IMG/VR virus record: IMGVR_UViG_3300025652_000061
Span: 878 to 64,877 of that record
Reading direction: 5' to 3' (one strand)
DNA from: a virus
Lineage: Duplodnaviria > Caudoviricetes
DNA: 64,000 nucleotides
The notes beneath the pieces are model-generated. The model saw only the letters and a list, made by a program, of their open reading frames with translations, was not told where the DNA came from and searched no databases. The position numbers were made by a program, and so were the translations under genes. This document shows positions 26,023 through 58,109 of the stretch, one piece after another (positions within the stretch are counted from its first letter, which is position 1; every line of letters starts with the position of its first letter).

Positions 26023-26945
26023 TGGCGTACATCACAGACTATCAGTACTACGAGAACGACGGTAACGCACCCGAGAATGCCAATTGGGGCAGCTACCAGT
26101 ACGTCTCGTTAGAGGACATCGTCAACAACTTCCTGTTGATGTATAGTGGCAACCACTCTTCGGTCAACAACGAGGAGCGGTACAAGGTCTTGTTTCATGC
26201 CAAGCGTGCTATACAGGAGTTGAATTACGACGCGCTCAAGGAGATTAAGGTTCTCGAGCTTGACGTGTGTGATACACTTCGCTTTGTGCTCCCCCAAGAC
26301 TATGTCAATTGGGTACGTATCTCCCTGTATAAGGACGGAGTTCTTCGACCGTTAACAGAGAACATCCAGACGAACTGGAGCTCTGCGTACCTACAGGATA
26401 ACAACTGCCGTATCCTTTTCGACGAGAACGGACAGATTCTAAGGCCCCAAGACTCGACCCTAGATGTCAACCGCATTGCCGGAACCAACCGCAGCATATA
26501 CCTCAACGAGAACAGCCCCTTAAACGGAGAGGAGGGGTACTACTACGAGGGATGTTGGTATTTCGACTGGGCTATCGGAGCGCGGTATGGCCTCAATACC
26601 GAGACGGCTAACGCCAACCCTACGTTCAGCATCAACAAGAAGGGTGGCGTCATCAATTTCAGCAGCGGCATGGCTAATGAGCTTTGTATCCTTGAGTATG
26701 TCAGCGATGGCATGGAGTCGGGAGACAACTCTGAGATTAGCGTAAACAAGATGTTTGAGGACTACGTGTATGCGTACATTCAATATGCTATCCTTGACGC
26801 TAAGCTGGGCGTACAGGAGTACGTAATTAGGAGGGCCTTAAAGAAAAAGAGTGCTTTGTTGCGCAACGCGAAGATTCGTGTAAGCAATATCCATCCGGGT
26901 CGGTTGCTGATGAATATGCGTGGTCGCGATAAGTGGATTAAGTAA
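26022..26945 (+). CDS. Tail ring/tubular structural protein
   Basis: FHAKRAIQELNYD, LPQDYVNWVRIS, ILEYVSDG. Confidence 0.65.
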   Translation: MAYITDYQYYENDGNAPENANWGSYQYVSLEDIVNNFLLMYSGNHSSVNNEERYKVLFHAKRAIQELNYDALKEIKVLELDVCDTLRFVLPQDYVNWVRISLYKDGVLRPLTENIQTNWSSAYLQDNNCRILFDENGQILRPQDSTLDVNRIAGTNRSIYLNENSPLNGEEGYYYEGCWYFDWAIGARYGLNTETANANPTFSINKKGGVINFSSGMANELCILEYVSDGMESGDNSEISVNKMFEDYVYAYIQYAILDAKLGVQEYVIRRALKKKSALLRNAKIRVSNIHPGRLLMNMRGRDKWIK

Positions 26946-31601: not shown

Positions 31602-32525
31602 ATGGGACTTATATCCAACTACTATTTAAACGGAACTACGCTCACCACGTCTACGAACATCTATTCTGATGCGGCACTTACCACGCCGGCCCCAGACGGG
31701 TTCTACTCGCAGAATGGATTCTATCGTGAGGCCGTGGCGGGAGTGTTGGGCACAACACAGGCGTGTCCTAGTTGTATCTCCTCGTGCCCATTGAATATCT
31801 CTACGCTTATGTCCTCTACGGGTCTGTATAGCGTTGAGGTTGAGATTAACGCTACGGTTGGCGCGGTCATTATTACGTTCGACCCACGCTCTACTCCGTA
31901 TGCTATTCGCGCTACATACAACAACACGGTATACAACGCTATCAGCTCCCCTGTCGATGGATACCACAAGGCCACCTCAAGTACGAACCCTACGTACATA
32001 GGTAATGGCTCCGACCCGTGTGCGTCTACATTGGTTTCAAACTCTCCTTACGGTGCGGTAACAGAATACAACTGGTACGACACAGCCTTCTACGATACGG
32101 GCAATACTAGCAGCGTTGTCGTTTCTGCTGGCGACGCCAGCTTTACTACTGGAGCTAGTCCCGGAAGCTGCGTTATGGTCATCCCTAAGATTACCACTCC
32201 GTCAGCCAATCTATTGATTGAGGTGGTAGAGCCGGCATCGTGTACGGGTCTTGCGTCCCTCAATGTCGCGTGCCCTGTTACTCTTTCTTCTTTCTTAGGC
32301 TCTGATGTTGGAGCAGTTTGTGGAGCTGGCATCAGCAACACCTATTACAACGTCCCTGTTACTGGCACTGTTGGCGCCCCGGCATTGTACGACTGGGTCT
32401 TCTTAGACGAAAACGCCGAAGACGCACTGCCCGATGGAGACTACATTTTTGCTGACGGAAGTAACGGAACGCCACACACCATTACCAATGGCATTATCAC
32501 TAATGTCGGAACCCCCTGTCCATAA
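31602..32525 (+). CDS. Cys-containing tail accessory protein
   Basis: IYSDAALTTPAPDGFYS motif; beta-rich. Confidence 0.7.
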   Translation: MGLISNYYLNGTTLTTSTNIYSDAALTTPAPDGFYSQNGFYREAVAGVLGTTQACPSCISSCPLNISTLMSSTGLYSVEVEINATVGAVIITFDPRSTPYAIRATYNNTVYNAISSPVDGYHKATSSTNPTYIGNGSDPCASTLVSNSPYGAVTEYNWYDTAFYDTGNTSSVVVSAGDASFTTGASPGSCVMVIPKITTPSANLLIEVVEPASCTGLASLNVACPVTLSSFLGSDVGAVCGAGISNTYYNVPVTGTVGAPALYDWVFLDENAEDALPDGDYIFADGSNGTPHTITNGIITNVGTPCP

Positions 32526-33301
32526 TGCCGTACACGCTTACATACAGTCCACCTGCTGAGGGCTGGCCTTCGTTCTATTCGTTTGAACCAGAGTGGATAC
32601 AGGGCATGAACCAGTACCTGTATACGTTCAATGGTGGCAACCTCTTTCGGCACAACACCAACGAGGTGCGCAACAACTTCTATGGGCAGCAGTTCAACAG
32701 CACCATTCAAAGCGTCTTCAACGACGACCCTATCGTCAATAAGGTTTTCAAGACATTACAGATTGAGGGCAACAGACCTTGGGCCGCTACGTTTACCTCC
32801 GACCAGCAGGACGGGAGGTTTATGGACGTAGGGTTCTTTGAGAAGAAGGAGGGCGACTGGTTTGCTTTCGTTCGTACTGAGAACAACAACCCCGCTTTAC
32901 CCGATGAGTACGCCCTGCGCTCTCTCAGCGGCATTGGTATCAGCGATGTAGTTGCTGCGGGTCAGGTCGACTTTGCATTGACGGTAAGTATTGGAAGCAT
33001 ACTTAGCATTGGCGACTACCTGTACTATGCCCTTCCCCCGCTTTACGATTCTATTGTCTATGCTGGTGTGGTTACATCTGTTAACGTAGATATCCCTAAC
33101 GGAATCAACCAAATCCTACACAATAACGGAGGCATTCCTACCCTTGTGCAAGACGCATTATGGTTGGGCATCAAGAACCAACAAGCAGAGTCTAACGGAC
33201 TCCTTGGGCACTACGGAGTCTTTGAGCTGACCAACACCGATACCGAGGCTGTGGAGATGTTTGTGGCACGGACCGAAGCTATGAAGTCGTATCCCGGCTA
33301 A
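32525..33301 (+). CDS. Tail stabilization protein, C-terminal part, as a separate gene
   Basis: TLTYS..GWPSFYSF.PE..YTFNGGNLFRHN, NKVFKTL, KKEGDWF. Confidence 0.65.
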   Translation: MPYTLTYSPPAEGWPSFYSFEPEWIQGMNQYLYTFNGGNLFRHNTNEVRNNFYGQQFNSTIQSVFNDDPIVNKVFKTLQIEGNRPWAATFTSDQQDGRFMDVGFFEKKEGDWFAFVRTENNNPALPDEYALRSLSGIGISDVVAAGQVDFALTVSIGSILSIGDYLYYALPPLYDSIVYAGVVTSVNVDIPNGINQILHNNGGIPTLVQDALWLGIKNQQAESNGLLGHYGVFELTNTDTEAVEMFVARTEAMKSYPG

Positions 33302-38548: not shown

Positions 38549-41500
38549 ATGACAGAAGTAAGGCTTGGACCTGACAATGCGTCGTTTACAGAGAAGGTGA
38601 ACAATGAGTACACCAAAAACATCTACCGGTACGTAACCGAAATCGACAAAAGCTTAAGTAAAGACTTAAGCGAGATAGACTTCGAGCGTGCTGTACAAGA
38701 CGAGGCGTATGCAACTGAGATGTACGGGTTCATCTCTTCACACGACAATACTTTTAAGGAAGACGTTTCGCTGGAACAGTTCCTTTCTTCAGTAAAAAAA
38801 AAAGAACTCGAGCAGCCTACGGAGTCTGTATCGGAAGATGGTTTATCGGAGTCTCAGCTCGCTACTAGGCCAATTGAAAGCGAGCGTATACTCGGCGGTC
38901 TATCAGACCGCAGGTTTGAAGTTCAGCAGGAGGCTGAGCAGCGCAAGCTATCGGGCATACCGGAAGATGAGCCTATCGACCTTCCGGAAAGCTTTGTCGT
39001 TGCTGACGAGTTCTATACTCCAGAACAGCGGGCGTTGCGCCAGCGGCGTATCGATGAGTTTGATTTACAAGGTGACGCCGAGGAGTTTCGGCGTTATCAA
39101 GAGCTTATGGACGCCCAAGGTGAGGTTGAAATTCCCGAGCTCACTACCGTATTACAGAACACTAACGTAAGCCAAGACAGTGTCGACGCCTTGAGGATGG
39201 CGTATGGTCAGTATGGATTTCGTTTTGAAGGAGACGTTGCTGATGGCAATGGAACCATAGTGGCATACAACAACTACTTCGGTGATGCTGCTGCGATAGA
39301 ACTTAAAGTACATAATGGAGAGGTTCTCGGTATCGAGCAGCTTAATGTTTTTTTAAGCAACAACAAGGCTCCTGTTAATGCCGTTACACCTCAGGAACGG
39401 TCCGAGGCGGAGCGGGCTTTACGCATACAGGAGATGCGACGAGGTAGTCGCAAGCAGCTTGACGGTCGTGTCGACACACATAACCTATCATTTGTTGAGC
39501 AGAACGGAAAATACTTGGTGTTTCCAACCCTGTTTCCAAAAGACCCCACATCAACGCTTAGTAATCCATCTGCGTGGCTTGACCTGAATGAGGAGCAAGC
39601 GTTAGATGAGGCCAAGCGTCGCGACGAGGTGTTGTTTGTGAATACTGAGGAGGAAGCAAAGGCACTTGTCGACGGTAGCTGGCAAGACTTCGACACCATG
39701 GACCTCGAGGGCGAGCGTCTATACCGCGAGTATGGTCGTGACTATTACGCCGAGCGTCAAGCGGGTCGTGACTTGCAGGATATGATGGACGAGTACAAGG
39801 CCATCGAGACCCTTGAGTATGGTACACGAGTCGAAGACAATGAGTTGGTGAGAAAGTACCCGCAGTATTTCATCGACGGAAATATGGTTCGTGATGACAT
39901 GGGTGACAAGAAGAAGGAGCTTGAGTTGAGCATCGATATTTTGTCTGAGCAGATGGACGAAGAGGAGCTGGAGAGACTCAACGAAGACTTCGATTCTATC
40001 CTCGATACGCGACTAAGTGAGCGTGCCACCCGTGCGGCTTCAATAGGTCGTGACGCAAGAATTCTGATGGACGATGCCAAGGTCCGTGCCCAAACACAGT
40101 TCGGCCTTAACATCGAGGATTTGGTGGGCTCTGAGGCCGCTGACCCAAGGGAGTTTCAAGAGAAACTTAACATCGTCGAGACCTATGCAGCAGGAGCTAA
40201 GGAGCGGTTCCAAGCCGCTCAGATGTATGAGCAGGCTGAGCTTTACTTCGACAAGAAACTCAACAAACAGATTACAGGCATCCTCGTAGATGGGGCATCC
40301 AACTCTTGGAATAATGAATGGGAACGTAGTGTAGCTCGCGGAGAAGCTGGCATATTGCTTACGTCCATGCACTTTGGCCTTGGCCCCAATGCATCTCGTG
40401 AGGATGTAGTGCGTGCTGCGGGTCAAATGCTGGACCACGAAAACAAAAACACCGGGCGCTCTAAAGCCCGTGTCAACGATGCCGCTACATGGGGACAGAC
40501 TAAGGATGCGTTCTTTGAGTCTCCTCTTGACTACACAGCGGCGGTGCTATCCGAGTCTATTGGTATGCTTATGCCTCAGGTTTTTAACTGGAGGACAGGC
40601 GGAATGATGGCCGCAGGTGCTGGAGTAGGCGCTTTAACGGCGGGGCCCGGAGGCGCACTCGCAGGTGCTATAGAGGGACTAGGCTACGCAGCTACGGGTG
40701 CATTCGCCATTGCTGAGTATGGCCTTGAGATGGGTCAAGCTTTTATCGATGTGGCCATGGAGGAGGGCTACGACCTAAAGGACCCGATACAGGCTATGCG
40801 TGCTGCTCAGGACTTAGAGATGTGGGAACGCGCTGAGAAACGAGGCCATCAACGCGGTGTTCCTATCGCAATTGCATCTGCCCTGAGTAACCTTGCGGCT
40901 GGACGGATAATCACAGCAAGTAAGTATTTACCGGGTAGGGTTCGAATTCCAGCACAAGCGGCTGGGGTGATGGCTGAGCGGGTAACTATAGACCCTTTGT
41001 TTGAGATGGCGGGCGAGTATGGTGCCCTTGTCAGTTCTGGACAGTTCACTGGAAGTACGGCGAATTGGAAAGAGATATATGCCGAAGGCTTGGGAGCTAT
41101 GGGTCAGGGGGCTCCAATGGCTGTTTTGAATACGGCCAGTAGGATGGTGCGCGAGAACAGGTTCAAGATGGCTGTGGGCCTAATGGATATCGGCAGCCTC
41201 AGTGAGGAAAGGGCCAACCTCGGAATGATACAGCGTTGGGTAAACAATATGGAGAAGCTCGAAAAAATCTCTCCGGAGATGGCAGAGTATATCCGTAGGA
41301 ACGTAGGTCTCTTACGTGAGGCCAATGTATTGTTGGGGCGTAAGCCAAACTCCAGAGGCAGGTTTGCTGACCCTGAGGTAACGGCTCGTCTTGTGCGTTT
41401 GCTTGAGGCCAAAAAAATTATTGAAGGTGACGGGCGTTCCTCACAGCAAAACCAAAGCGGTGCATTCTCTGAGCTATTGTCACGCATCAACGATGAGATA

Positions 41501-44500
41501 GCGGAGACTGTAAGGACGGGTCGCCTCTCAGAGGAGGGGGTAGAGTTAAACCCTTCGCAGCGAGAGTTTACTCCGGGCATGGAACCAGACCTTAGTCAAG
41601 AGGAGGAGCTGGAGTTGCTCGTGGCTAAAGCAAGGCCCGGCGTATATCAGATTGACGGGTCCTTTATGGACCGTGTCAAGTTCGTAAACACAATAAAAGA
41701 AGAGAAGGATATTAGAAAGCTCAAGAAAGCCGTCGTCCTTAACGACCCCCTTGTAGCCAGCCTTTTAAAAATACAGCAAAATGCCATTCAAAAGCGAAAA
41801 GCAACGCCGCTACCTGTGGGCGAACAAGCCCAGTCTAGCGAAGAAGTGGACGAAGAAGTACGGGTCGACCCCCCCACGCAAGAAGAGCTTGATGACTACA
41901 AGGAAGGCTCGTTAACGAGCGAGCGCATTAGCCTCATCGAGGGTGACATCGTAGAGATTCTGGCATCGAAAGGTGAGCTCGATGCAATACAACAGCAGTT
42001 CTATGAATTCAATGCTGAAGAGATAGACCGTCGCGTCACAGAGTTCAATGCATTTGTAGAAGACAATGTCATTACTGAAGACGGCAAGCCTGTAACAAAA
42101 GAGAACTTAGGGATTATAGCCAAGGCAAAGAATGCTGTAGCTGCCCTAGCCAAGAACTTCCCTGAGGTTAAGGTCGTGCTCCATGACACAAGAGAGTCAT
42201 ATGAGAAGGCTTCTAAGGACACGACGGGGTCCGGGACATACTTGTGGGACCAGAAAGAAATCCACATCGACCTTACCACAGCTAATGATAGGACGGTAGC
42301 TCACGAAACCTTCCACGCTGTACTGAGGAATAGCATCGACGAGTCTGATGTGAGGGCCCTGATGGACGACTTCGTAGAGACGTTGCTGAAAGTATTGCCC
42401 GAAGACTCTGACATTTTGTCTCGCCTCAACGAGTTCATGCAACGGTATGAGGAAGGTGTCCGAAGCGAGGAGTTCGTGGCTGAGTTCTTTGGTATGGTGG
42501 CTGATGCGTATCCAGAGCTCGACGTCAAAGAGAAGGGTGTCGTCGCCCGTTTCTTGGAGCGGCTGGCTTCCATGCTCAACATTGAGCTCAACCTCTCTAC
42601 CGACCTGAACAAGCGAGACAAGCAAATCCTGTCTTTGCTGGAGACGCTCTCGGGCAAGGTGGCTGAGGGTAAGACCATCACCAAACGAGAGATATCCGCC
42701 TTCAAGGGTCTTACAGAGACCAAGAAGAAGACTGACCCAGAGGTAGAGGTAGAGAGTGTATTGCCGAAGAGGAGCACTCTTGGTTTCTCTGACAAGGAGC
42801 TGGTATTGCAGTCGGAGCGTGAGTTCGGGAAGAACGGAGCTGTCGGAGTATATGTAGACCCCGACACCGGAGAGATTGCAGCCGTGGTTGCGATACCGGA
42901 TAAGACCAGCGACGCAAACTACCTTGGGTACAAGAGGCTCTACGAGAATGGTAAGGCCACGAACAAGTTCGCAATCAAGGCTGACCTTAGTACGGCGGAG
43001 AAAGGCTCTACTCGCCCTGCGTTTGAGGCTGCTGTCGAGTCGCTACCCGACGACCACGTGTTGGTGGAGGCGGACAACATTTCCTCCGATGGCATTACCC
43101 TGTGGCTCAACCAGCTCCGCAACAAGTACGCGCCAACAGGAAACGTGTTTACGGTGCCTGTCAACGTGGCCGGAACAAAGGTTGACTTGGGCGGCCAGCC
43201 CGCGCCCGGACGGGACGTGTTCAACCGGGGTTTCTTCAGCAAGGGAGAGGCCAATTCGGCAGAGGCAAAGCTCAACGACCTCATCAAGGATATTCCGGGC
43301 GCAAAGATTACACGTAAGTCTGAGGCTAACAACCTATTTAGTTTCGAAGTCACGCTACCTGAGTTGGGGCGCTCGTCAACGAGCGGCGTCTCCTCGCAGC
43401 AGTTAGCTCTGGACAACTTACGCGCATCGCAGCAGAGGTCGTCTGAATACAAAGATTCAGACATAGAGGCATTGGCGTTTGAAGGTATCCTTGCGCACTT
43501 TACTGTGGCCAACATAAGGGAGTTTGAGCCGGGCAGAGGGCGTGTGCAATACTATGGTGAGGGGATATACTTCACAGGAAGACGCTCATACGCAAGCCTA
43601 TTTTCCTTCCTAAGCACCAATGAAATGGTGTCTTTCGTGGACGTGTCCAAAATGAATCTTCTTACTATACATAATTCATACAATGTATCGGCTGAGTTAG
43701 AGAATCAGATAGTGGACATGCTCATGGAAATGGGGCCTGCATACGACTGGAGGGGGGGCTTAATGAATAGGCAAGAAGTTTTTGACATGCTTTTTGATTC
43801 AGAAAACCCGGGGCTTACACCCTTGTTTAGAGTTCACTCTCAGGTTGTTAGGATGGGTCTGAACAAGGAGGCCGCAAGAATTCCGGCACCCAAAAACGTG
43901 GATGCAAATGCCGGGCAATATGTCCGCCCCCTATTCGAGAAGTTCTTCCCAGAGTATCAAGGCATCGTCAATAGAGAAGACCGAGAAAATGGACTGCCCA
44001 TAGATGTCGTGGTATGGGACTACGATGCTATCAATAAAAATATTGTTTCCGCCCCCCTCAATCGGCTTAAGAATATTCGTAACCTCTCCGCTTCAGAAGA
44101 GAAGCTTACTAGGCCCCGTTGGGGTGGGCGCTCCTCGCAGCAGGTCAATGTCGAAAGCAATGAGGACGGTAGCTTTACGTTCCGCACTGAGGGTGGCAGG
44201 CTCGATGCGTTCCTTGATGGCAACGTAGTTACGCTGGACAACATCTTTGTTGAGCCAGACGTACAGAGACAAGGCGTGGCGACACAGTTGGTCGATGCGG
44301 CGATGGATGAGTTCCGCGACGAAGAGAGTCTAAGTGTAGTAGACGAGGACGGCAATACGATTGAAGAGCCGCAGCCTTTTATTATCGCAATTGGCACTCG
44401 AGTTACTGCCGAGGGTGACGCCTTCTATGACGCCGTCATAGATGGTATCGAAGCGTTCAATAGACGCAATGACAGTAAGCCTGAATTCAATGAGGACGGA

Positions 44501-47500
44501 TTGTCTGAGGTGCGCATGTCTCGGCAGATGGGCTTGGAGGAGGCCACGCAGGAGTGGGTTGAGGAGAACTTCAAGAACGCCGACGCGGGTCTGCGCGAGT
44601 TCCTTGTGGAGTTTGTCAAGCAGCCGGGTGTACGCCTGTTCCTAAACCCTATCGGCGGAGGCTTCTTCTACGCCAACCAAGACAAGGGGAGCACAGAGCT
44701 TGACGTTCGCACAAGCATATATATGGAGAGGGGGTTAGTTTACCTCGACCTTCTTGAGGTGGTTGCGGGAGACAAGAGTCAGGGTGCGGGCACACGGTTC
44801 ATGCAAGACTTTGTGGCTGCCCTTGATGCGTCAAATCAATCCGCAGAACTGCTTGCTTGGCCACCTAAGTGGTACCAACAGGGCATGAGCGACGAAGAGA
44901 TGGAGGCCATCTCCAAGCGTCTGCAATCGTTCTACAGCCGCTTTGGTTTTACTCCCAAGAGTAAGTTCGATGACAACAGTATGACCCGTGAGCCGGGTGC
45001 TGTTCCGAAAGAGCGCACGGCGTTGGAAGAGCGCACGGCACGGGAGCGGGCAAATGTACTCACCAGCATCGCTGACACTCGAACTAAGAAAAATGTGTTG
45101 GGTCACATCATTGCTCAGACTTACGATGTTTATTCGGAACAATATGAGGATAAAACTGAGTTCGCCCGAATCGATAGGGCAGTTGACCCATACGATGAGG
45201 GCGTTCTTGCTACCGACCTTTATAGTGGAAGGGTTACAGCAGAACAGATTGAGGAGATAAACGATGAGTACGGAGACGGCCTCATCAACGAGGACGGTTT
45301 TGCTGAGAACTTTGAAGACTTTGTAGACTCGGATATAGTAGACGACTACGTCGACCTCGTCATCGAGGAAAAAGAAATTAGTGGACGGCTTCGTAATGTT
45401 GAGCGCCGGGTAAAAGAAGAAGGTGAGGCGGCAGGCCGGCGTGAGCGTAGGCTCGGTAAGCTGGAGGACAATACGATGGCTCTTGAACACATCCTCGCTG
45501 TAAACGAAGATGTGTATGGTCGGACTGAGACGGATGTATACAATCAGTATGAGGCATACTTGGAGGGGCGTTTGGATGAGGCCGACAAGGAGTACCTGCG
45601 TTCTCTTGAACTCGGTATCGACGTCGAGACAGGCGAGGTGGACAATGCCAGCAACCTATACGATGTCTTCCAAGAGCTTCAAGATGTTCGCGAACAACGC
45701 AATGACCTTGAGCGCCGCTCCTCGCAGCAGCGCGCCATGGAGACGGACGGCACGGGTCTAGACGTACAGGGTACCGAAGAGGTAGTCACGGGGGAAGTCA
45801 GCCCAACGGTGCTTGACAAAAAGAATCAGGAGCTTACCGATGATTACCGACTTGAAGATGCGGTAGGAACCATCAAAAGCGTGGCCTCAAGAGCCGTTAG
45901 TGCCGCTAGAAAAGCTGCTGCCGGTAAGGTTTCCTACAACAAAAGGAACCCTAGGACCGGGAAGGTTAAGGTGATAACGGTAGAGTATCCGTATCAGAAC
46001 AAGAAACTTTTATCTCTCCTCAATCGCAGGACCAACGCTGCAAAAAAGGCCACCGGGAAAAAGAAAGCCGCCCTGATGGAGCGGGTGAAAGAGACTACGT
46101 CTCAGATACTGGATGAGTTCGTGGACACCATGACCGAGAACATCCTCGCGGTATATGACACGCTTACACCAGAATTTATTGAGGCATCAAAGGAGTGGTA
46201 TGTCGGAGCCAATAGGGTAGCCAATGAGTTGGCAAGGAAGTACAACATTTCTCCTGAGCAAGCCGGGGCTGTCTTGGCTGTGCTGAGCCCACAGAACGAT
46301 TGGTTTAACAACATCTCGGTGGCGGAGAGGGCGATAGAGGTGATGTCAAAGCATTCCAATACCCCGTTCAGCAGGGAGATATTCGAGAAGGCTCTAGACA
46401 AAAACAAGACTGGTGCGTGGTCTTCCTTCCTGAAGGACGCCTTCGCTCGTTATGAGGGCATGACCCTTGAGCAGATGAATGAACAGGGGGTGGCTCTGGC
46501 AACGCAAACCGTCATCTTGCGTGCTATCGACCAAGCCTTGTATCCCGGTAAGGTCTTGCTTACCGACCCCGACGGTAGGTTCCTTGGCTTTGATACCACT
46601 CCTGTGCGTTGGGGTGCTACATCAGAGATTGCCAAAGCTATTTCAGCGTTCCGCAATCCCGACATTGATAGCATCCGGATGAACCTTGGGTATGGGAACA
46701 AGGTCCGCAACTTCTACAATAATATTGTAGACCCTAACTCAAGCTACCCCTACGTAACTGCTGACACCCACGCCGTTGCTGTGGCCATGTCTACCCCCAT
46801 GTCTGCCGATGACGCGGGTGGAGTGGGTCTTTTTGATGGTGGCTTTAGCCCGATGTATATGCTTGTCAAAGAAGCTTACATCAACGCTGCTGAGATAGCT
46901 GGCATCAGGCCCAGAGAGATGCAGTCTATTACTTGGGAGGCTGTACGGGTTGGCATGAACAACGCCAACAGAACTGCTGCCGCAGTAGAAAAAAACAAAT
47001 CCAAACTCAAGAGTCTAGTTGAAAACGAAAACGTCTCTCCTTATGAAGCAGCAAGAAGAATCCTTATCAACAACCCCAGCGTCAACCCTGAGTGGGCAAC
47101 AGCAAGAGGAATCCAAGTCCAAATTCCTGACCTTCGAGAGGGAGTTAGGGAGAAAGCCGAATCGAGAGGACGCGATATACTATCTCTACGGGGACGCTCC
47201 GGAAGAGACGTGGGAGACACCGGTGCCGGAGTGGGTGTTCAGCCTACCGAAGACCGCTCCTCGCAGCAGCGATTAGCCCCTAATGGAAAGCCCAGTAACC
47301 TGACGCCTGAGCAGTACGACTTGGTTCGTACTGAGGCTTTCAAGAACTGGTTTGGAGATTGGGAGAACGACCCGAAGAATGCCTCAAAAATAGTCGACGA
47401 TAACGGGGAACCCATGGTGGTGTACCATGGAAGCGTGGACCCCGACATACAAGAGTTTAGCGAGGAGGGTGCTCGAGAGCGACGCAGGTCCGGTCTAAAC

Positions 47501-50500
47501 GAGCTTGGGGTCTTCTTCTCTTCGAACCGAGACCTAGCTCAGGATTATGCAAAGGGCAGGGCAGAGATGTCTAGGGTGGCCGATGAGCAGATGCGAGAGC
47601 GGGGGGTTGTGAGAGACGATGTTCGTCAGGGGGACTATGTGCCGTCTGTGTATGCAGCATTCTTGGACATGAAGAATCCCTACCGCTTCGACGGCAAGGG
47701 CAAGTTCTACCCTGACTACTACAACGAGGTGCCATACCTTGAAATCTGGCCTAACTATGGCAAGAGCGGTAAGCGGGCTGTCACGGCATATCTAGGAGAT
47801 AATACCGCGTACGAAACTCCGTATGATGGAGTGGTGGCAGAGAACGTAATCGACTACCACTCGTTTGCTTCTCAACCAGACTTTGACCCCCTTGGAGACA
47901 CCGTCATTGTCCCCTTCTCCTCCAAGCCCACCATCAAGCTGGCTGACGGGAGCAACACCACGTTTAGTACCGATGACTCTCGCATAAGTAGGCAGATTCC
48001 GCCTAGCCGTCAGGTGGAGAAGAACGTAGAGGAAGCCTTCCGAGAGGGCACACCGTTTGAGGCGTCGGACTTTGAGGTGAAGTCATCGCAGCAGAAGCTA
48101 GAGCGATTGGCTCAGCCCGACGACAGCATGCAGGACATCATCGACCGGGGACGGGAAAGGTATATGCCTGACTCCGTAATCGTGGCGGTGCTCATCAAGA
48201 AGTACGGACGGAAGAACATGAAGGCCATCAGTAATGCAATGGCCATCAACTACGACATTTTCCGTGCCATGCCCAAAGTCTTTGGTGATGTCAAAGGTGG
48301 TCTAAAGGCAGGCAGAGAAATCTATATCGACGTCATGAAGGCGCTCGATGAGTTTGCTTCACCGAAGAAGGAGAAGCTTAAGCCACTGAGAGGAAAGGTC
48401 CGTAATGATAGGATTGCGGAGTTGCGTAAGGAGTTCCCGAAGGAGGAAGAGAAGAGCGATAAGCAGCTCCTGAAAGACCACCCGCGCAAGGTGAAGCTAA
48501 TAGCACCAACCAAGGCAGAGGTGGTAGCCAAGGCGATGGAGCTACTGACGGAGAACCCAGAGTTTAAGAAGCAGACGCCCGACTTGCAGGATAAGATGGT
48601 CGTAGGCTTTAACAGGGCTATGAGTACCCGCGCCAACAAGGGCATACAAAACAAGTTGCGCGAGCTGCGTAACAACATCAGTATGCGTAAGCAGGGAGCC
48701 AAGGCGGCTGCCGAGGTGAAGAATCAGATGCGAGCCCTGATGGAAGAGGCTTTGCCAAAAGCTGTGTATTCTAAAGGTGAGGTCAAAAGGATGCTTGGCA
48801 TCATCGATAGGGTCAATGAGAAAAACTATCAGGTAGAGGCAGAGAAACTTATCTCGGTCATAGAATCCAAGAGGCAGGAGATGAGCAACAATGTCCTGAA
48901 GGACATACAACGCTTTGTTCGTAAGGCCGCACGCACATACAAAACCTCATCAGGTAGGGTGCGTACCCGTGGCTTAGACGCCGCCGGACAGGCTTATTTC
49001 CAAGAGGCGGAGAGGGTGATGCTCGCCATAAAGAACAACGATGTCGAGACGCTAGGGCGGATGGCAGAAGAGCACGCAAATAACGCGCTCGTCAACGAGC
49101 TGATTAACGCTCGCAACGAGGGCGCCAAGCTTACCGTAAAGGAACAGTCGCTACTCGATAGGGTCAGCGCATACGATATGTTCATCCGCCTGCTCGACAT
49201 GAACCTCGAAGAGAGGGAGGCCGTGCTCGAAGACTTGCGTATCAACGAGGGTTTCTCCCGCTTTGCTCTCAACCAGCAGCGACTCATCAATGCACGCAGG
49301 GCAGAAGCCCTACGTCAAGGTGCAGCGGAAGACGTAGCGTCAAACTACGGGTCTATTATCCTCGGTCCCGATGGGCTTCCGATGAACGACAATGAGATTG
49401 GTGCCAAGCGTAGCGTAATCCTAGCGCGGTGGAAGGACTCTACCGCACGGGAGAAATACGACATGCTCAAGGACTTGATGAAGACCATGAGTCAAGAGAG
49501 CGCGGGAAAGTTGGCCAAAGGTCTTAGGCAAGGCATCCACCTAGGTACATATTCCAGCATCCTCGGAGACTACTTCTACGAGAACATCTTCTCTTCGGTC
49601 AACAGGATGGAAGAGGAGTACAACAGGGGGGTAATCAACCTGTCTGCAAAAATAGATGAGCTGGCCAACAGCATCGACGGTATTGAAGACGGGTATGCGG
49701 AGATAGCGGAGCTGGCGATGTCCAACACAAAGATGTTTACCCTGAACATGAAGGGTAGGCAGCAGGCTTTCTTCATGGATAGCCTCATGCGGCTGTATGC
49801 TTTGTCTTTGAACCCATTACAGAGGCAGCGCCTTGTAGAGATGGGCATAGACATGTCTGAGCTCGACGCCATCATAGACCCTAGGCTCAAGGAGTTTGTA
49901 GAGAAGACGGTAGACTTCCTGTCCAACGAATACTACGAGGGCATCAACGATGTATACCGTAGCGTCAATAGCGTTAATCTCCCACACATAGAGAACTACT
50001 TCCCTACACAAACGCTGGTGCCGACAAAGGTTTCTATCAATGAGCTGAAGGAGGGGTTGTTGGGCATGCCGTCAGCACAGACGGCATCGGCTTTGAAGTT
50101 GCGTACCGCAACTACGGGTGAGATTGCCCTTGGCTCCGAAGCGGGTGGCCTCAGCTTTTTCCAAGTGCTGGAACAGCACAACAAAAGCATGGAAAGGTTC
50201 AAGGCTTTTGCGGAAGGAACGAGGGACATCAATAGCATCCTTTCCACACAAGAGTTGCGCTCGCTGCTTACGGTATTCAACGGTAACCAGATGCTGAACC
50301 TGTTGGTCAACAACAGTGTCAACCCCGAGCAATTTGTTTCGGAGATGTCGTATCCACTTGCGGATTGGATGACTAAAAAATTCACCTTTGCCGCGCTGGC
50401 CTTCAAGGTGTTTCAGGCATTCAAACAATTTGCGTCTATCCCCATGGCTTTTGAGGGGTACAAGTATCGCCCTGACTCCAACAGGTTTACTGACGCCCTG

Positions 50501-51478
50501 ATGTTTAGCTTCGATGTGGCTCGCCTTACAGTACACATGCTGGCTGAGCTCGCTACGCTAGGGAAATACAAGGGACCTGTAGCCGAGGCTATGGATATAT
50601 CGGCTACGTTCCAGCAGCGGGTAAAGCAAGGATTCAGCGGAGACATATACACCTTGGAACAAGGCAGCGTAGGCATACGAAACCCACGCGATAAGTTCAA
50701 AAAGGGACAGCGGTTTGTGAAGGGCATGGAACGGGCTGGCGGTATGACCACGGCCATCGGAGATATCGGTGGTGTGATGGGATACTTTGTCAACTACCGC
50801 CGCAACATTGAGAACGGGATGTCAAAGGAGGAAGCTCTGGAGAAGTTCAACGACTTCAATGTGACACAGCAGTCGCGCCGACCTTCGGAAAGGGTTCCGG
50901 TACAGATTTATCAGAACGGAATATTGCGGCTATTCACAGCCTTCGGAAGCACATACTTCCTCTATGCCAACAACACTATTCAGGCCGGAAACAAAATCCT
51001 GAGGGCCATAAGAAAGGGAGAGAAGCCAAGCTCGAAGGACGTGCGCCGCTTCTACCTTAACGCAATATATGGTCACGTAATATGGACGATGGCAGCCAAC
51101 GCTTCTCTGCTAATTAAAGGAGATAAAGAAGACAGAGAGAAGGCGTTGAAGAGAATGCTTGTGTCTCCCTTGGGTCCCCTTACTCTTATACCCATAGTTG
51201 GTGCTCAAGTGAAGCAAGTCATGAACGCTCTCGCCGGCGACGACTTTAAAGCGTCGGTTGGTTTGGACCCACTGGAAGGCTTAATACGTGAGGTCAAAAA
51301 ATCATTTAAAGAAGAGCGTTACGGGCGTGCCGTGTCCGAGATATTTGAGTACGGACTGGGAGTCAACTTTGATATGTTCCGTGGTCTGTATAAGATAGCG
51401 GAAGGAGAAGAGGTTACCGAGGGTACCTATGAAGCTCTGGGAATACCGAAGACAACAAGGCCGGAGTCAGACGAGTGA
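38549..51478 (+). CDS. Giant polyvalent internal virion protein (zincin peptidase, GNAT x2-3, ADP-ribosyltransferase-like x2, DUF7178-like HhH-glycosylase-type domain)
   Basis: 4309 aa; HETFH..EEFVAE; QRQGVATQL and KSQGAGTRF..FYSRFGF; YGEGIYFT and FKNWFGDWE..VVYHGS..GVFFS..YDGV; AVLSPQNDW..KVRNFYNN..VTADTHA..MQSITW. Confidence 0.85.
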   Translation: MTEVRLGPDNASFTEKVNNEYTKNIYRYVTEIDKSLSKDLSEIDFERAVQDEAYATEMYGFISSHDNTFKEDVSLEQFLSSVKKKELEQPTESVSEDGLSESQLATRPIESERILGGLSDRRFEVQQEAEQRKLSGIPEDEPIDLPESFVVADEFYTPEQRALRQRRIDEFDLQGDAEEFRRYQELMDAQGEVEIPELTTVLQNTNVSQDSVDALRMAYGQYGFRFEGDVADGNGTIVAYNNYFGDAAAIELKVHNGEVLGIEQLNVFLSNNKAPVNAVTPQERSEAERALRIQEMRRGSRKQLDGRVDTHNLSFVEQNGKYLVFPTLFPKDPTSTLSNPSAWLDLNEEQALDEAKRRDEVLFVNTEEEAKALVDGSWQDFDTMDLEGERLYREYGRDYYAERQAGRDLQDMMDEYKAIETLEYGTRVEDNELVRKYPQYFIDGNMVRDDMGDKKKELELSIDILSEQMDEEELERLNEDFDSILDTRLSERATRAASIGRDARILMDDAKVRAQTQFGLNIEDLVGSEAADPREFQEKLNIVETYAAGAKERFQAAQMYEQAELYFDKKLNKQITGILVDGASNSWNNEWERSVARGEAGILLTSMHFGLGPNASREDVVRAAGQMLDHENKNTGRSKARVNDAATWGQTKDAFFESPLDYTAAVLSESIGMLMPQVFNWRTGGMMAAGAGVGALTAGPGGALAGAIEGLGYAATGAFAIAEYGLEMGQAFIDVAMEEGYDLKDPIQAMRAAQDLEMWERAEKRGHQRGVPIAIASALSNLAAGRIITASKYLPGRVRIPAQAAGVMAERVTIDPLFEMAGEYGALVSSGQFTGSTANWKEIYAEGLGAMGQGAPMAVLNTASRMVRENRFKMAVGLMDIGSLSEERANLGMIQRWVNNMEKLEKISPEMAEYIRRNVGLLREANVLLGRKPNSRGRFADPEVTARLVRLLEAKKIIEGDGRSSQQNQSGAFSELLSRINDEIAETVRTGRLSEEGVELNPSQREFTPGMEPDLSQEEELELLVAKARPGVYQIDGSFMDRVKFVNTIKEEKDIRKLKKAVVLNDPLVASLLKIQQNAIQKRKATPLPVGEQAQSSEEVDEEVRVDPPTQEELDDYKEGSLTSERISLIEGDIVEILASKGELDAIQQQFYEFNAEEIDRRVTEFNAFVEDNVITEDGKPVTKENLGIIAKAKNAVAALAKNFPEVKVVLHDTRESYEKASKDTTGSGTYLWDQKEIHIDLTTANDRTVAHETFHAVLRNSIDESDVRALMDDFVETLLKVLPEDSDILSRLNEFMQRYEEGVRSEEFVAEFFGMVADAYPELDVKEKGVVARFLERLASMLNIELNLSTDLNKRDKQILSLLETLSGKVAEGKTITKREISAFKGLTETKKKTDPEVEVESVLPKRSTLGFSDKELVLQSEREFGKNGAVGVYVDPDTGEIAAVVAIPDKTSDANYLGYKRLYENGKATNKFAIKADLSTAEKGSTRPAFEAAVESLPDDHVLVEADNISSDGITLWLNQLRNKYAPTGNVFTVPVNVAGTKVDLGGQPAPGRDVFNRGFFSKGEANSAEAKLNDLIKDIPGAKITRKSEANNLFSFEVTLPELGRSSTSGVSSQQLALDNLRASQQRSSEYKDSDIEALAFEGILAHFTVANIREFEPGRGRVQYYGEGIYFTGRRSYASLFSFLSTNEMVSFVDVSKMNLLTIHNSYNVSAELENQIVDMLMEMGPAYDWRGGLMNRQEVFDMLFDSENPGLTPLFRVHSQVVRMGLNKEAARIPAPKNVDANAGQYVRPLFEKFFPEYQGIVNREDRENGLPIDVVVWDYDAINKNIVSAPLNRLKNIRNLSASEEKLTRPRWGGRSSQQVNVESNEDGSFTFRTEGGRLDAFLDGNVVTLDNIFVEPDVQRQGVATQLVDAAMDEFRDEESLSVVDEDGNTIEEPQPFIIAIGTRVTAEGDAFYDAVIDGIEAFNRRNDSKPEFNEDGLSEVRMSRQMGLEEATQEWVEENFKNADAGLREFLVEFVKQPGVRLFLNPIGGGFFYANQDKGSTELDVRTSIYMERGLVYLDLLEVVAGDKSQGAGTRFMQDFVAALDASNQSAELLAWPPKWYQQGMSDEEMEAISKRLQSFYSRFGFTPKSKFDDNSMTREPGAVPKERTALEERTARERANVLTSIADTRTKKNVLGHIIAQTYDVYSEQYEDKTEFARIDRAVDPYDEGVLATDLYSGRVTAEQIEEINDEYGDGLINEDGFAENFEDFVDSDIVDDYVDLVIEEKEISGRLRNVERRVKEEGEAAGRRERRLGKLEDNTMALEHILAVNEDVYGRTETDVYNQYEAYLEGRLDEADKEYLRSLELGIDVETGEVDNASNLYDVFQELQDVREQRNDLERRSSQQRAMETDGTGLDVQGTEEVVTGEVSPTVLDKKNQELTDDYRLEDAVGTIKSVASRAVSAARKAAAGKVSYNKRNPRTGKVKVITVEYPYQNKKLLSLLNRRTNAAKKATGKKKAALMERVKETTSQILDEFVDTMTENILAVYDTLTPEFIEASKEWYVGANRVANELARKYNISPEQAGAVLAVLSPQNDWFNNISVAERAIEVMSKHSNTPFSREIFEKALDKNKTGAWSSFLKDAFARYEGMTLEQMNEQGVALATQTVILRAIDQALYPGKVLLTDPDGRFLGFDTTPVRWGATSEIAKAISAFRNPDIDSIRMNLGYGNKVRNFYNNIVDPNSSYPYVTADTHAVAVAMSTPMSADDAGGVGLFDGGFSPMYMLVKEAYINAAEIAGIRPREMQSITWEAVRVGMNNANRTAAAVEKNKSKLKSLVENENVSPYEAARRILINNPSVNPEWATARGIQVQIPDLREGVREKAESRGRDILSLRGRSGRDVGDTGAGVGVQPTEDRSSQQRLAPNGKPSNLTPEQYDLVRTEAFKNWFGDWENDPKNASKIVDDNGEPMVVYHGSVDPDIQEFSEEGARERRRSGLNELGVFFSSNRDLAQDYAKGRAEMSRVADEQMRERGVVRDDVRQGDYVPSVYAAFLDMKNPYRFDGKGKFYPDYYNEVPYLEIWPNYGKSGKRAVTAYLGDNTAYETPYDGVVAENVIDYHSFASQPDFDPLGDTVIVPFSSKPTIKLADGSNTTFSTDDSRISRQIPPSRQVEKNVEEAFREGTPFEASDFEVKSSQQKLERLAQPDDSMQDIIDRGRERYMPDSVIVAVLIKKYGRKNMKAISNAMAINYDIFRAMPKVFGDVKGGLKAGREIYIDVMKALDEFASPKKEKLKPLRGKVRNDRIAELRKEFPKEEEKSDKQLLKDHPRKVKLIAPTKAEVVAKAMELLTENPEFKKQTPDLQDKMVVGFNRAMSTRANKGIQNKLRELRNNISMRKQGAKAAAEVKNQMRALMEEALPKAVYSKGEVKRMLGIIDRVNEKNYQVEAEKLISVIESKRQEMSNNVLKDIQRFVRKAARTYKTSSGRVRTRGLDAAGQAYFQEAERVMLAIKNNDVETLGRMAEEHANNALVNELINARNEGAKLTVKEQSLLDRVSAYDMFIRLLDMNLEEREAVLEDLRINEGFSRFALNQQRLINARRAEALRQGAAEDVASNYGSIILGPDGLPMNDNEIGAKRSVILARWKDSTAREKYDMLKDLMKTMSQESAGKLAKGLRQGIHLGTYSSILGDYFYENIFSSVNRMEEEYNRGVINLSAKIDELANSIDGIEDGYAEIAELAMSNTKMFTLNMKGRQQAFFMDSLMRLYALSLNPLQRQRLVEMGIDMSELDAIIDPRLKEFVEKTVDFLSNEYYEGINDVYRSVNSVNLPHIENYFPTQTLVPTKVSINELKEGLLGMPSAQTASALKLRTATTGEIALGSEAGGLSFFQVLEQHNKSMERFKAFAEGTRDINSILSTQELRSLLTVFNGNQMLNLLVNNSVNPEQFVSEMSYPLADWMTKKFTFAALAFKVFQAFKQFASIPMAFEGYKYRPDSNRFTDALMFSFDVARLTVHMLAELATLGKYKGPVAEAMDISATFQQRVKQGFSGDIYTLEQGSVGIRNPRDKFKKGQRFVKGMERAGGMTTAIGDIGGVMGYFVNYRRNIENGMSKEEALEKFNDFNVTQQSRRPSERVPVQIYQNGILRLFTAFGSTYFLYANNTIQAGNKILRAIRKGEKPSSKDVRRFYLNAIYGHVIWTMAANASLLIKGDKEDREKALKRMLVSPLGPLTLIPIVGAQVKQVMNALAGDDFKASVGLDPLEGLIREVKKSFKEERYGRAVSEIFEYGLGVNFDMFRGLYKIAEGEEVTEGTYEALGIPKTTRPESDE
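41781..41915 (+). CDS. Nested out-of-frame basic protein MPFKSEKQRRYLWANKPSLAKKWTKKYG... (44 aa)
   Basis: +1 frame of the giant gene; A-rich leader; matches from memory the MPFKSxxQRR small phage protein family. Confidence 0.75.
   Translation: MPFKSEKQRRYLWANKPSLAKKWTKKYGSTPPRKKSLMTTRKAR
41907..41920. repeat. Perfect-palindrome variant GCTCGTTAACGAGC
   Basis: One mismatch to the consensus; contains the TAA of the nested gene. Confidence 0.8.
43371..43384 (+). repeat. Dispersed palindrome, copy 6
   Basis: Exact match; at a module junction of the giant gene. Confidence 0.95.
47043..47276 (+). CDS. Candidate nested out-of-frame protein (77 aa; ...FERELGRKPNREDAIYYLYGDAPEETWETPVPEWVFSLP...)
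   Basis: +1 frame looks globular while the main frame is an R/G-rich linker. Confidence 0.5.
   Translation: MKQQEESLSTTPASTLSGQQQEESKSKFLTFERELGRKPNREDAIYYLYGDAPEETWETPVPEWVFSLPKTAPRSSD
49087..49100 (+). repeat. Dispersed palindrome, copy 7
   Basis: Exact match; encodes LVNE. Confidence 0.95.
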
Positions 51479-56494: not shown

Positions 56495-56779
56495 TCAGAA
56501 CGGAGACTCTTCCTCAGTCGGGGGCTCTACCTCAGCCTTCGGCTTCGGCTCCCATGTGTCAAGCTCGAAGTAGTAGCGGCCATCTTGGCTGAGCTTCATC
56601 TCGAAGTTGACCCATCCCCTCTTGGCATTGTTCTTTATCATGGTGAGGAACTCACCCTCTTCGCCGTCATCATCGAAGACCTTGATGCCAACCTTGGCTT
56701 TGATAAAATCTGGAGCCTCCTCGTTGGGCTTCTTCCAATTCATTCCGGGTGCGTACACCCTGTCTTTCTCTTCACTCAT
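56495..56779 (-). CDS. Putative single-stranded DNA-binding protein
   Basis: Acidic tail ending PF; GWVN..YFELDTWEP; follows Sak and exonuclease. Confidence 0.6.
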   Translation of the reverse strand: MSEEKDRVYAPGMNWKKPNEEAPDFIKAKVGIKVFDDDGEEGEFLTMIKNNAKRGWVNFEMKLSQDGRYYFELDTWEPKPKAEVEPPTEEESPF

Positions 56780-57519
56780 AGTGTTTGGGTTATATAAAAA
56801 GTTTCAATTGTATCTGTAGCATCAGGCCCAAAGAACTTGTCGTAGACCTCAAGGCCCCGTTCGACTTTCTCTCTCCCTCGGGTGATGAAATCCTCGCTTG
56901 GTTCGTACATGCCCATCCTGCCTGTCTTCTTGTCGATGACGAAGAACACCAGCGGTACGCCGAACAATGTCTCATAGATGTAGCATTGGCTGTCGTAGCC
57001 ATACTTGCGTGCCGACCACTTGAAGTCGTCGATGTTGCCAGTGGTCTTCAGGTCGATGACGCGGTCAGGACAGAGGATGTCTGCCTTGCCCTTGAACTCT
57101 CGACCCATGATGTTACCTACGATAGGTTCCTCATACTTGTTGGCGTCATCACGGATGGCTTCGAAGAAGTCGTAGTTGCCAAGCATCTTCTGCGCCCACC
57201 CATGTATCTCCTGCATCTCCTTGGTTAGGAGCATGAACGGTACACCAAGGTTTGCACACGCGTCCTTGTACTTGTTGGTGTCGCGGCGGGAGGCATCGAC
57301 ACACGCTACATTAGCTGCCTTCTCCGGCTCAAGGATGAGCTGATGAAAGAGGCGACCTTTCGCAAACACAGGGTTGTCAGGGGTGGGGACACCGAACTTA
57401 GACGGGTCGTCAAGCAAGACCTTGATGTCCGAGTTGGACATGTACTGCCTGCCGAACTCTCCGTAGTAGCTCTCGTCATCCCGCAGTTTTTCTATGACGT
57501 TCTCGATGATGTCGCTCAT
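56776..57519 (-). CDS. PD-(D/E)XK exonuclease (RecE/DUF3799-like)
   Basis: SNSDIK, GRLFHQLILEP, KGKADI..IDLKTT, YGYDSQCYIY. Confidence 0.88.
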   Translation of the reverse strand: MSDIIENVIEKLRDDESYYGEFGRQYMSNSDIKVLLDDPSKFGVPTPDNPVFAKGRLFHQLILEPEKAANVACVDASRRDTNKYKDACANLGVPFMLLTKEMQEIHGWAQKMLGNYDFFEAIRDDANKYEEPIVGNIMGREFKGKADILCPDRVIDLKTTGNIDDFKWSARKYGYDSQCYIYETLFGVPLVFFVIDKKTGRMGMYEPSEDFITRGREKVERGLEVYDKFFGPDATDTIETFYITQTL

Positions 57520-58109
57520 AGGTTCTCCTTCAATGCCTTCTGGACTTTGGTGCTCACCTTGTACTTGGTGCGCAACTGCTCAAGAATCCATGGAAGCCCC
57601 TTGTCCTTCTGCTCAATGACGAACTTCAAGACCTTGGCCCAGTTCTTGTCATCGACCTCAAGACTAATGCGCTCGTTGACGAGCGGCTTAGAGGGTGCTT
57701 CCTTGGCCTTACTACTAGCGACTGAGGTATCCTCCTTCAGCCACAGCGAAAGTCCAAGGCCGTGCATCGCAATAGCCTTCACGGTAGCGCGTTGAATGGT
57801 CTTGTTGACCTCGAAGCTATTGACCTTGTCAATCGGGATGGAGTTGTTGCGGTGGTCCATGACACAAAGCATGTCGATGTGCTCTTGCTCCTCCACGACG
57901 ATACCCACCTTAACATAGGCCCACCTGCCGTCAGTAAAGTAGTTGAGTCCCGTGTGCTCAGACTCATAGATGATACGCTGAGCATTGGGGTAGTTCTGCT
58001 TTAGCAAAGACCAAGCCCGCGCCCAAGGCAGGTAGTCATTATGGCCCTTCTTCTCAATGAATGAGCTGACGTCGATGGCCTGAAGCGTGTTGTAGATGGA
58101 CTCTTTCAT
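57516..58109 (-). CDS. Sak/Rad52-like single-strand annealing protein (DUF1071)
   Basis: EKKG..YLPWARAW, VMDHRN, QRATVKAIAMHGLGL. Confidence 0.88.
   Translation of the reverse strand: MKESIYNTLQAIDVSSFIEKKGHNDYLPWARAWSLLKQNYPNAQRIIYESEHTGLNYFTDGRWAYVKVGIVVEEQEHIDMLCVMDHRNNSIPIDKVNSFEVNKTIQRATVKAIAMHGLGLSLWLKEDTSVASSKAKEAPSKPLVNERISLEVDDKNWAKVLKFVIEQKDKGLPWILEQLRTKYKVSTKVQKALKENL
57671..57684 (-). repeat. Dispersed palindrome, copy 9
   Basis: Exact match in the Sak linker. Confidence 0.95.

Follow-up and report, generated by a model that had tools for sequence, protein, structure and literature searches.

We analyzed a stretch of 64,000 nucleotides (nt; the window) that makes up all but 877 bases of the 64,877-base virus record IMGVR_UViG_3300025652_000061 (Caudoviricetes; CheckV completeness, 100%), and focused on the junctions of one giant protein. 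This polyvalent protein of 4,309 amino acids (aa), P0001, is encoded on the plus strand at 38549-51478 by the final gene of the portal-capsid-muzzle-tail block, and a short peptide, x-S-[Q/R]-Q, recurs in it. The motif is real, is far more frequent than expected by chance, and lies at module edges; corresponding joints across the orthologues carry it in three spellings (SSQQ, VSEQR, and AAEQR). It is selected as a peptide and not as DNA, and it follows a zincin-like domain across a large protein family. We infer cleavage, the protease, and its place and time, and predict, with a probability of about 0.55, that the repeated junction peptide is a cleavage site read by the zincin embedded in the same polypeptide.

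Nine junction copies of x-S-[Q/R]-Q were found in the giant open reading frame (ORF): RSSQQ at aa 963, 1861, 2390, and 2903, VSSQQ at aa 1614, RASQQ at aa 1625, KSSQQ at aa 3178, RMSRQ at aa 1989, and RISRQ at aa 3145. The tripeptide SQQ was observed 7 times versus 0.42 expected, and SSQQ, the most over-represented 4-mer in a de novo count, 6 times versus 0.03 expected (Poisson, 4e-13). Outside the giant gene, S[QR]Q was at background level (6 observed versus 3.5 expected in 16,241 aa). At the DNA level, the 15-mer CGCTCCTCGCAGCAG is present in three copies at 44129, 45716, and 47255, all on the plus strand and in frame, and none of 100 dinucleotide shuffles contained any match to it. The 9-mer TCGCAGCAG occurs 8 times, on both strands, versus 0.68 expected; six of these copies lie in frame in the giant gene and end the 15-mers at 43388, 43421, 44129, 45716, 47255, and 48080. 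No DNA similarity around the junction copies was observed past the motif itself. A first-pass annotation, made from the sequence of the window alone, had placed all of these motifs correctly and had rightly described the junction as conserved also in its DNA, with the restriction that the likeness ends at the motif. Its statement that everything lies downstream of the HETFH zincin was incorrect, since the RSSQQ at 41435 lies upstream of HETFH (42302-42316). The minus-strand GAGGAG in the reverse complement of CGCTCCTCGCAGCAG was considered as a ribosome-binding site and was rejected, because no minus-strand ORF begins downstream of any copy.

Orthologues were then sought in a search of 5.8 billion proteins and in a metagenome scan. 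The protein search returned two full-length relatives with similar cassettes, P0003 (4,411 aa) and P0004 (4,625 aa), a variant of the giant protein (P0031, 90% identical), and a set of relatives of 3,000-3,500 aa without similar cassettes. From the metagenome scan came L009, an ORF of 4,010 codons whose 5' end is open. P0003 and P0004 spell the motif [V/I]-S-E-Q-[R/K/M] at 8 sites each and L009 spells it [A/G]-A-E-Q-[R/K] at 9 places, in all cases at the same aligned junctions, and the local spelling was the top or near-top 4-mer of each orthologue. One joint thus reads RSSQQR-LAPNGKPSN in P0001 and RVSEQR-TAPNGQPSN in P0003, and another reads RSSQQRAM-ETDGTG in P0001, ISEQRSI-ETDGTG in P0004, and RAAEQRVDIK-TDGTG in L009. 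The spelling belongs to the host protein and not to the cassette, as the motifs flanking cassettes that are 78-82% identical are each lineage's own. Module m4 of L009 and module m5 of P0003 are 78% identical, although the chassis parts of these two proteins share only 39-49%; for the ADP-ribosyltransferase (ART) cassette, identity is 82% in the P0001/P0003 pair and only 61% in the P0003/P0004 pair, against 67-73% for the chassis parts of the latter pair. A spelling that tracks the host protein is expected if a lineage-specific reader must recognize every junction. The motif also stands in tandem copies 8-33 aa apart, as at aa 1616/1627 in P0001 and 2120/2128 in L009.

The codons of L009 were informative as well. 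All four codons for Ala and both for Gln occur among its 9 AEQ[R/K] matches, together with five different codons for the Arg/Lys residue; one match (aa 2849) was not counted as a junction when the modules were analyzed later. Since these codons vary, selection there acts on the peptide, and DNA identity is not the selected feature. In P0001, the additional RSSQQ at 41435, with its own codons, likewise points to selection on the peptide. A repeated motif was absent from the orthologues that have few cassettes and a different zincin (P0005-P0020 and MW202828). MW202828 was set aside as an informant on the motif, since its giant lacks any SQQ and carries a different, HEFGH zincin that falls outside the zincin profile.

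The modules and junctions of P0001 are arranged as follows.
38549-41449, plus strand: N-terminal chassis, aa 1-967, with a Gly-rich hydrophobic stretch; 31-34% identity to P0003, P0004, and L009; no Pfam family.
41435-41449, plus strand: RSSQQ site upstream of the zincin, with codons CGT TCC TCA CAG CAA; lineage-specific, with no motif at the matching place in P0003 or P0004.
41996-42748, plus strand: zincin-like domain, aa 1150-1400, with HETFH at 42302-42316 and invariant Glu residues about 55 aa downstream.
42751-43389, plus strand: 213-codon cassette, aa ~1401-1614; no Pfam family; absent from a natural variant that is ~97% identical.
43388-43402, plus strand: VSSQQ junction, a 15-mer ending in TCGCAGCAG.
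43421-43435, plus strand: RASQQ junction, 11 aa past VSSQQ, a 15-mer ending in TCGCAGCAG.
43436-44143, plus strand: module m3, ART-like, aa 1630-1865; sub-threshold PARP match (E 0.032); ART-PolyVal look-alike clusters at 0.94 (language-model atlas).
44129-44143, plus strand: RSSQQ junction, copy 1 of the 15-mer.
44144-44527, plus strand: module m4, GNAT acetyltransferase, aa 1866-1993; Acetyltransf_1 at 29.4 bits versus a cut-off of 20.7; 75% identity to P0003 m2 end to end.
44513-44527, plus strand: RMSRQ junction (RVSEQM in P0003 and P0004).
44528-45730, plus strand: module m5, aa 1994-2394, a GNAT-like N-terminal part and an acidic coiled region; 67% identity to P0004 m2 end to end.
45716-45730, plus strand: RSSQQ junction, copy 2 of the 15-mer.
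45731-47269, plus strand: module m6, DUF7178, aa 2395-2907; 118 bits versus a cut-off of 27; 58-65% identity to three orthologues end to end.
47255-47269, plus strand: RSSQQ junction, copy 3 of the 15-mer.
47270-47995, plus strand: module m7, ART-PolyVal ADP-ribosyltransferase, aa 2908-3149; PF18760 at 62.9-64.2 bits versus a cut-off of 31.2; 82% identity to P0003 m6.
47981-47995, plus strand: RISRQ junction (NISEQR in P0003 and P0004).
47996-48094, plus strand: 33-aa spacer (aa 3150-3182) ending in the KSSQQ junction (48080-48094); P0003 and P0004 hold a second ART cassette of 207-212 aa here.
48095-51475, plus strand: C-terminal chassis, aa 3183-4309, helical with hydrophobic segments; 38-47% identity to P0003, P0004, and L009 end to end; no Pfam family.

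P0001 is polyvalent, with at least two unrelated effector domains in one phage polypeptide, including the signature ART-PolyVal. The first-pass module calls fared unevenly: GNAT (aa 1866-1993), DUF7178, and ART-PolyVal passed Pfam, and the ART-like m3 and the second GNAT (aa 1994-2184) were weaker, the latter with GNAT look-alike clusters at 0.94 only and no Pfam match. Neither the first module that had been called GNAT-like nor the zincin gave a Pfam match. Among the four orthologues only P0001 has an m3 module, with no counterpart in P0003 or P0004. We abandoned the idea that the 33-aa spacer is what remains of a second, deleted ART cassette, since the alignment was too weak. An AlphaFold model of aa 1600-2200, built from a 4-row alignment as a check of whether the junctions lie in flexible linkers, had a mean predicted local distance difference test score (pLDDT) of 40, which was too low to use.

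Pieces cut at the motif aligned end to end between proteins (e.g., residues 1-128 of 128 with 2-129 of 129), while their neighbors may be unique. Because precutting at the motif forces the alignment ends, the test was repeated with uncut proteins, in six full-length pairwise BLASTP comparisons among P0001 and the three orthologues. Of 83 internal alignment ends, 40 were no more than 10 residues from a motif and 56 no more than 25; random placement gave 3.35 ends within 10 residues, with a maximum of 10 in 2,000 trials. P0003 has one extra module and P0004 has two, both proteins have the second ART where P0001 has the spacer, and the first GNAT is absent from P0004. The proposal that the motif delimits the modules, and that breakpoints of module gain and loss in orthologues should fall at it, was thus borne out by the end-to-end alignments and by the clustering of ends.

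In a further step, the signal was followed across the family. With an E cut-off of 0.001, a profile of the zincin-like domain matched 927 representatives, of which 335 reached 1e-30; among the best 150, nearly all were giants 2,000-3,800 aa long that have the domain around residue 1,000-1,500. Motif counts were made on 124 giants, with the 3 training proteins left out. R-[Q/K/E]-Q was found within -10 to +50 residues of the end of the zincin domain in 53 of the 124 relatives, versus a background of 5.9% per window of that kind, consistent with the motif behaving as a peptide-level signal that a large zincin-bearing family shares, and with the first-pass proposal of a cleavage site, which the zincin would read. 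In a de novo 3-mer count of the same giants, RKQ (24 versus 3.35 expected) and PRQ (11 versus 0.75) ranked beside words of a conserved downstream domain. Cassette-rich relatives had their own variants repeated at module spacing, namely, QRQQ four times in P0108 and GR[D/E]QK four times in P0048. RQQK was present four times in P0092, once directly before an LAPNGK ART cassette, and RAAEQRV was found in P0162 and P0115. The common core of the family junctions is [E/Q/R/D]-Q-[R/K/Q], with Gln as the anchor. AER.R, found five times in P0182 as its best pattern (p 5.8e-10), was rejected as a junction motif because its contexts are unlike those of other junctions.

A first scan of 88 giants had yielded 8 proteins with a pattern of at least 5 spaced copies, 2 of which were periodic repeats, versus 1 of 88 shuffled proteins. 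An unrelated DUF7178 giant of 3,778 aa, located at L049:6917-18250, has its own HExxH (HEVAH, aa 1459) and carries S-A-R-D-[E/D] at 7 sites 140-250 aa apart, together with looser copies, with both AGC and TCC Ser codons in use. It seems to represent another family, one that has a junction code of its own.

Motif-like peptides were also noted away from the junctions. We observed DRISQQNS at aa 771 of 811 in the portal protein (window 17956-20391), AVSQQ at aa 120 of 128 in the protein at window 24021-24407, and IPRSRQ at aa 14 of 276 in the protein at window 24392-25222. These peptides near the termini of three head/tail-module proteins could be extra substrates of the same protease or could be due to chance. 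In all four orthologues, a motif-like G-L-S-E-x-[Q/K] lies ~80-100 residues from the N terminus, with LSESQ in P0001 (window 38840-38860, aa ~98-104) and LSERK, LSEQQ, and SSEQR in P0003, P0004, and L009, and it may be an additional conserved site.

We then examined the embedded zincin-like domain. In an alignment of residues 1150-1400 to seven relatives, all eight sequences share an invariant HExxH (1252-1256) and, some 55 positions further downstream, three invariant Glu residues (H1252, E1253, and H1256, and Glu at alignment positions 158, 159, and 163). Judging from the alignment, one of the downstream Glu residues would provide the third zinc ligand. The AlphaFold2 model of the domain had a pLDDT of 68.7. 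A complex prediction of the zincin with a 36-residue junction peptide, run without controls, scored 0.00 and yields no verdict.

We propose that P0001 would act as a polyvalent cargo protein in which a variable string of effector cassettes (ART-like, GNAT, GNAT-like, DUF7178, and ART-PolyVal) is set in a framework of conserved chassis parts at both termini and an embedded gluzincin-like domain (HETFH). The peptide x-S-[Q/R]-Q would be the spelling, in the P0001 lineage, of a family-wide junction signal with the core [E/Q/R]-Q-[R/K/Q]. At the junctions, the embedded zincin would cleave the polyprotein and so release the individual modules, inside the head once the protein is packaged or inside the host once it is ejected.

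Several observations weigh against this proposal. PPEP-2 (6fpc_A), a sequence-specific zinc endopeptidase, was the sole whole-domain fold match in a wide search (root mean square deviation, 4.0; 143 of 185 residues aligned); this match is suggestive and speaks for the zincin as the reader, but its Z score of 7.4 falls within the range that the tool calls common. Foldseek returned no match of the zincin model to solved structures at E 0.001 or better; the rows listed were, in favor of the proposal, zinc metallopeptidases (collagenase H as the best at E 0.028, PPEP-1, and anthrax lethal factor) except for two rows of 3-dehydroquinate synthase. The domain matched no Pfam peptidase family at E 1 or better. 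The model thus suggests that the HETFH domain is a gluzincin-like metallopeptidase, and this assignment is weak. No experimental or proteomic evidence of cleavage was found for the giant protein or for any relative. P0001 itself has no R[QKE]Q directly after the zincin, where a degenerate QSER (aa 1421-1424) comes closest. Examples had already been seen when the family-wide regular expression was composed, although the 3-mers RKQ and PRQ were nonetheless enriched de novo. Only 6 of the 124 large relatives had a spaced motif below the best shuffled p (1.2e-8), and 3 of these 6 are 40-aa structural repeats. The alignment ends are not independent, because the four proteins share ancestry. Finally, codons shared between junctions (P 1.4e-7) show that something acts at the DNA level too in the P0001 lineage.

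Other roles for the peptide were therefore weighed. The motif might be the cleavage site of another protease, either an unrecognized phage maturation protease or a host protease encountered once the protein is ejected, with the zincin acting on host targets. The weak fold evidence for the zincin and the motif-like peptides near the termini of three other head/tail-module proteins, as expected from a general maturation protease, speak for this. We nevertheless judge it decidedly unlikely: a Pfam search of the 62 other ORFs of the phage found an M15 cell-wall peptidase as the sole protease family, neither Pfam nor the solved structures gave any match for the ORF between the portal and capsid genes (20403-21458), 53 of 124 relatives have the motif after the zincin domain, and lineage-specific spellings are hard to square with a single host protease. 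It is also unlikely that the motif is an uncut intermodule element, whether a linker cap or a folding, packaging, or ordered-unfolding signal that every module needs. Such an element would fit with cleavage being inferred and not seen, with the thought that crAss-type cargo crosses the tail unfolded (in the part of PMC10172136 drawn on here), and with the presence in this phage of its own Cpn60 and of a Cpn10-like protein. A structural linker, however, needs no concerted rewriting at all joints, for which a reader with changeable specificity is a better fit, and structural caps would hardly be expected in tandem at distances of 8-33 aa.

Natural variants of the giant gene bear on the question of peptide or DNA. 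The stretch 43300-48200 was near-identical in 20 public runs from 16 studies, a spread that is unusually wide for one phage genotype; these runs date from 2012 to 2024 and carry marine, seawater, freshwater, sediment, and mollusc labels, and no RNA run was among the listed runs that contain the phage. Contigs of four runs were compared with the giant gene. In a ~97% identical contig of run X17, 42664 was joined to 43390 with 86 other letters between, corresponding to an in-frame loss of 213 codons, and identity started again exactly at the 13-mer of the VSSQQ site (43390). A loose end in run X19 abutted the same position and, read with the window, gives D-G-P-R-S-S-Q-Q. The loose ends of X12 (behind 47257) and X16 (behind 45712) read R-A-A-E-Q-R, with the likeness to the window stopping at the motif, and are relatives of the L009 kind. 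One further contig joint, from 46905 to 47154 (depth, 60; short side, 40 letters), probably stems from another organism.

According to a DNA-level explanation, the motif is primarily a 13-15-nt in-frame microhomology for cassette exchange, deletion, or duplication, and the peptide is a by-product. Indeed, 5 of the 6 SSQQ sites in P0001 are spelled TCC TCG CAG CAG, although TCC and TCG each make up only ~15% of Ser codons, and under the codon usage of the gene the chance of at least 5 of 6 sites sharing any one 12-nt spelling is P 1.4e-7. The X17 and X19 junctions at 43390, the Sak annealing protein and PDDEXK nuclease of the phage, and the conflict between the similarity patterns of the ART cassette and the chassis point in the same direction. 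Against this stand the nine L009 sites, which lack a common codon pattern, and the SARD sites of L049, which use both Ser codon families. Moreover, no motif DNA was found in the window at the left edge of the 213-codon indel, the GNAT loss in P0004 kept the last 16 residues of the cassette with a breakpoint at least 13 residues upstream of the motif, and highly similar cassettes bear different motifs by lineage. We thus regard a primary role of the DNA as very unlikely. The microhomology for cassette swaps put forward in the first-pass annotation stood in its observation of shared synonymous codons in this phage and was otherwise weakly supported, for these same reasons. The shared codons are most likely a secondary, lineage-specific trace of one junction's sequence having been copied to others; copying is the simplest reading, since independent point mutations would hardly yield identical codons.

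Cleavage by the embedded zincin could also be extended to a private, rewritable code, which we advance tentatively and consider rather unlikely in full. The zincin and all junctions would respell together (SSQQ, VSEQR, AAEQR, RQQK, and QRQQ), and the spelling would be spread in this phage by short-patch gene conversion, leaving in-frame 13-15-nt repeats that let cassettes drop or insert in frame. Foreign cassettes would then be usable only once given the local code. A Sak-type single-strand annealing protein adjoins a PDDEXK nuclease (DUF3799) on the minus strand at window 56776-58109; this pair, the phage's own recombination pair, could mediate short-patch conversion.

Embedded zincins were proposed by Iyer, Burroughs, Anand, de Souza, and Aravind (2017; PMC5512222) to process polyvalent proteins, and the part of that paper drawn on here names no cleavage site or motif. 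Similarly to P0001, the proteins described there combine unrelated effectors (ART-PolyVal and GNAT) in one giant with an embedded HExxH and a predicted autoproteolytic release. P0001 differs from those described in that part of PMC5512222 by an explicit peptide with lineage spellings at each junction and by a zincin outside the Pfam peptidase models. An analogy of polyvalent proteins to RNA virus polyproteins is also drawn in PMC5512222. Our literature search found no paper naming where polyvalent proteins are cut. RNA virus polyproteins are cut after Gln by 3C or 3C-like proteases. They resemble P0001 in having a short linear motif with an invariant Gln at each junction, an embedded protease (putative in P0001), and virus-specific dialects; P0001 differs in the protease class, in belonging to a DNA phage, and in carrying proposed injected effectors instead of replication proteins.

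The MARTX toxins of Vibrio are giant multieffector proteins, secreted by bacteria, in which an internal protease cuts the linkers between effectors after delivery; this protease is a cysteine protease domain activated by inositol hexakisphosphate. The likeness to P0001 is in the mode of action only, as P0001 is a phage protein with a zincin-like domain, and a Pfam search of P0001, whole and in pieces, found no MARTX-type cysteine protease domain. PPEP-1/PPEP-2 and anthrax lethal factor, M34-type zinc endopeptidases that are each strictly specific for a short linear motif, were the best structural matches of the modeled domain and share with it HExxH and a downstream Glu, with a weak likeness (Z 7.4, E 0.03-0.4, and 10-16% identity); they are secreted, and their substrates are proteins of the host or the cell surface rather than the polypeptide that contains them. 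T4 gp21 and phiKZ gp175 are separate serine proteases that cut after Glu at short x-x-E motifs in many internal head proteins. As proposed for the P0001 junctions, these prohead motifs comprise three residues with a fixed residue before the cut and are repeated. A prohead maturation protease gene was not found by Pfam among the 62 ORFs. An S-x-Q cut register, like the S/A/G-x-E of phiKZ, was dropped since L009 has Ala at the "Ser" place.

The position of the giant gene after the tail genes is similar to that of the large cargo and RNA polymerase-associated genes of phiCrAss001, whose products reside in the head until ejection (Bayfield et al. 2023; PMC10172136, in the part drawn on here). No homology to this crassvirus cargo was detected, and muzzle homologues are present in our phage. 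The word stem "cleav" is absent from the text of PMC10172136.

The nine junctions in one protein, with the same joints respelled in relatives, offer exact candidate cut sites, and the 927 zincin representatives provide a set in which covariation of protease and site can be sought. If the sites are real, the modules could be delimited and expressed one by one for antidefense assays, prediction of cut sites could extend to hundreds of uncultured phages, and the family would illustrate how, in nature, a protease and its sites shift specificity jointly.

The late genes of the phage encode a large terminase, a P22-like portal, capsid proteins, two crassvirus muzzle homologues, and tail proteins. 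The muzzle genes matched crAss_MUZ (31.0 bits versus a cut-off of 27, at 26945-31600) and crAss_MUZ_C (61.4 bits versus a cut-off of 27, at 32525-33301) in Pfam. Given its gene position at the end of this block, P0001 is probably packaged in the virion. The nearest named phages infect Flavobacterium, Cellulophaga, and Tenacibaculum, and MW202828 was the closest record, with a terminase identity of 74%. A search of phage records by DNA gave a single, irrelevant match of 162 nt. Among viral contigs, the N-terminal piece of the giant protein retrieved only two distant or truncated loci and the full-length alignment only one.

The phage also encodes a chaperonin of the Cpn60/GroEL type (165.7 bits, window 1217-2749), and the protein at window 14884-15492 has a weakly Cpn10-like C terminus (E 0.0015). 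Two adjoining proteins upstream of the head genes (window 10039-13106) carry PKD and DUF285 (BspA-like repeat) domains and are probably adhesins or fibers. Within the ART-PolyVal cassette, a 218-nt stretch (47552-47771) was of equal length and strongly diverged in a variant contig that was otherwise ~97% identical, and this is a hypervariable patch within the ART enzyme.

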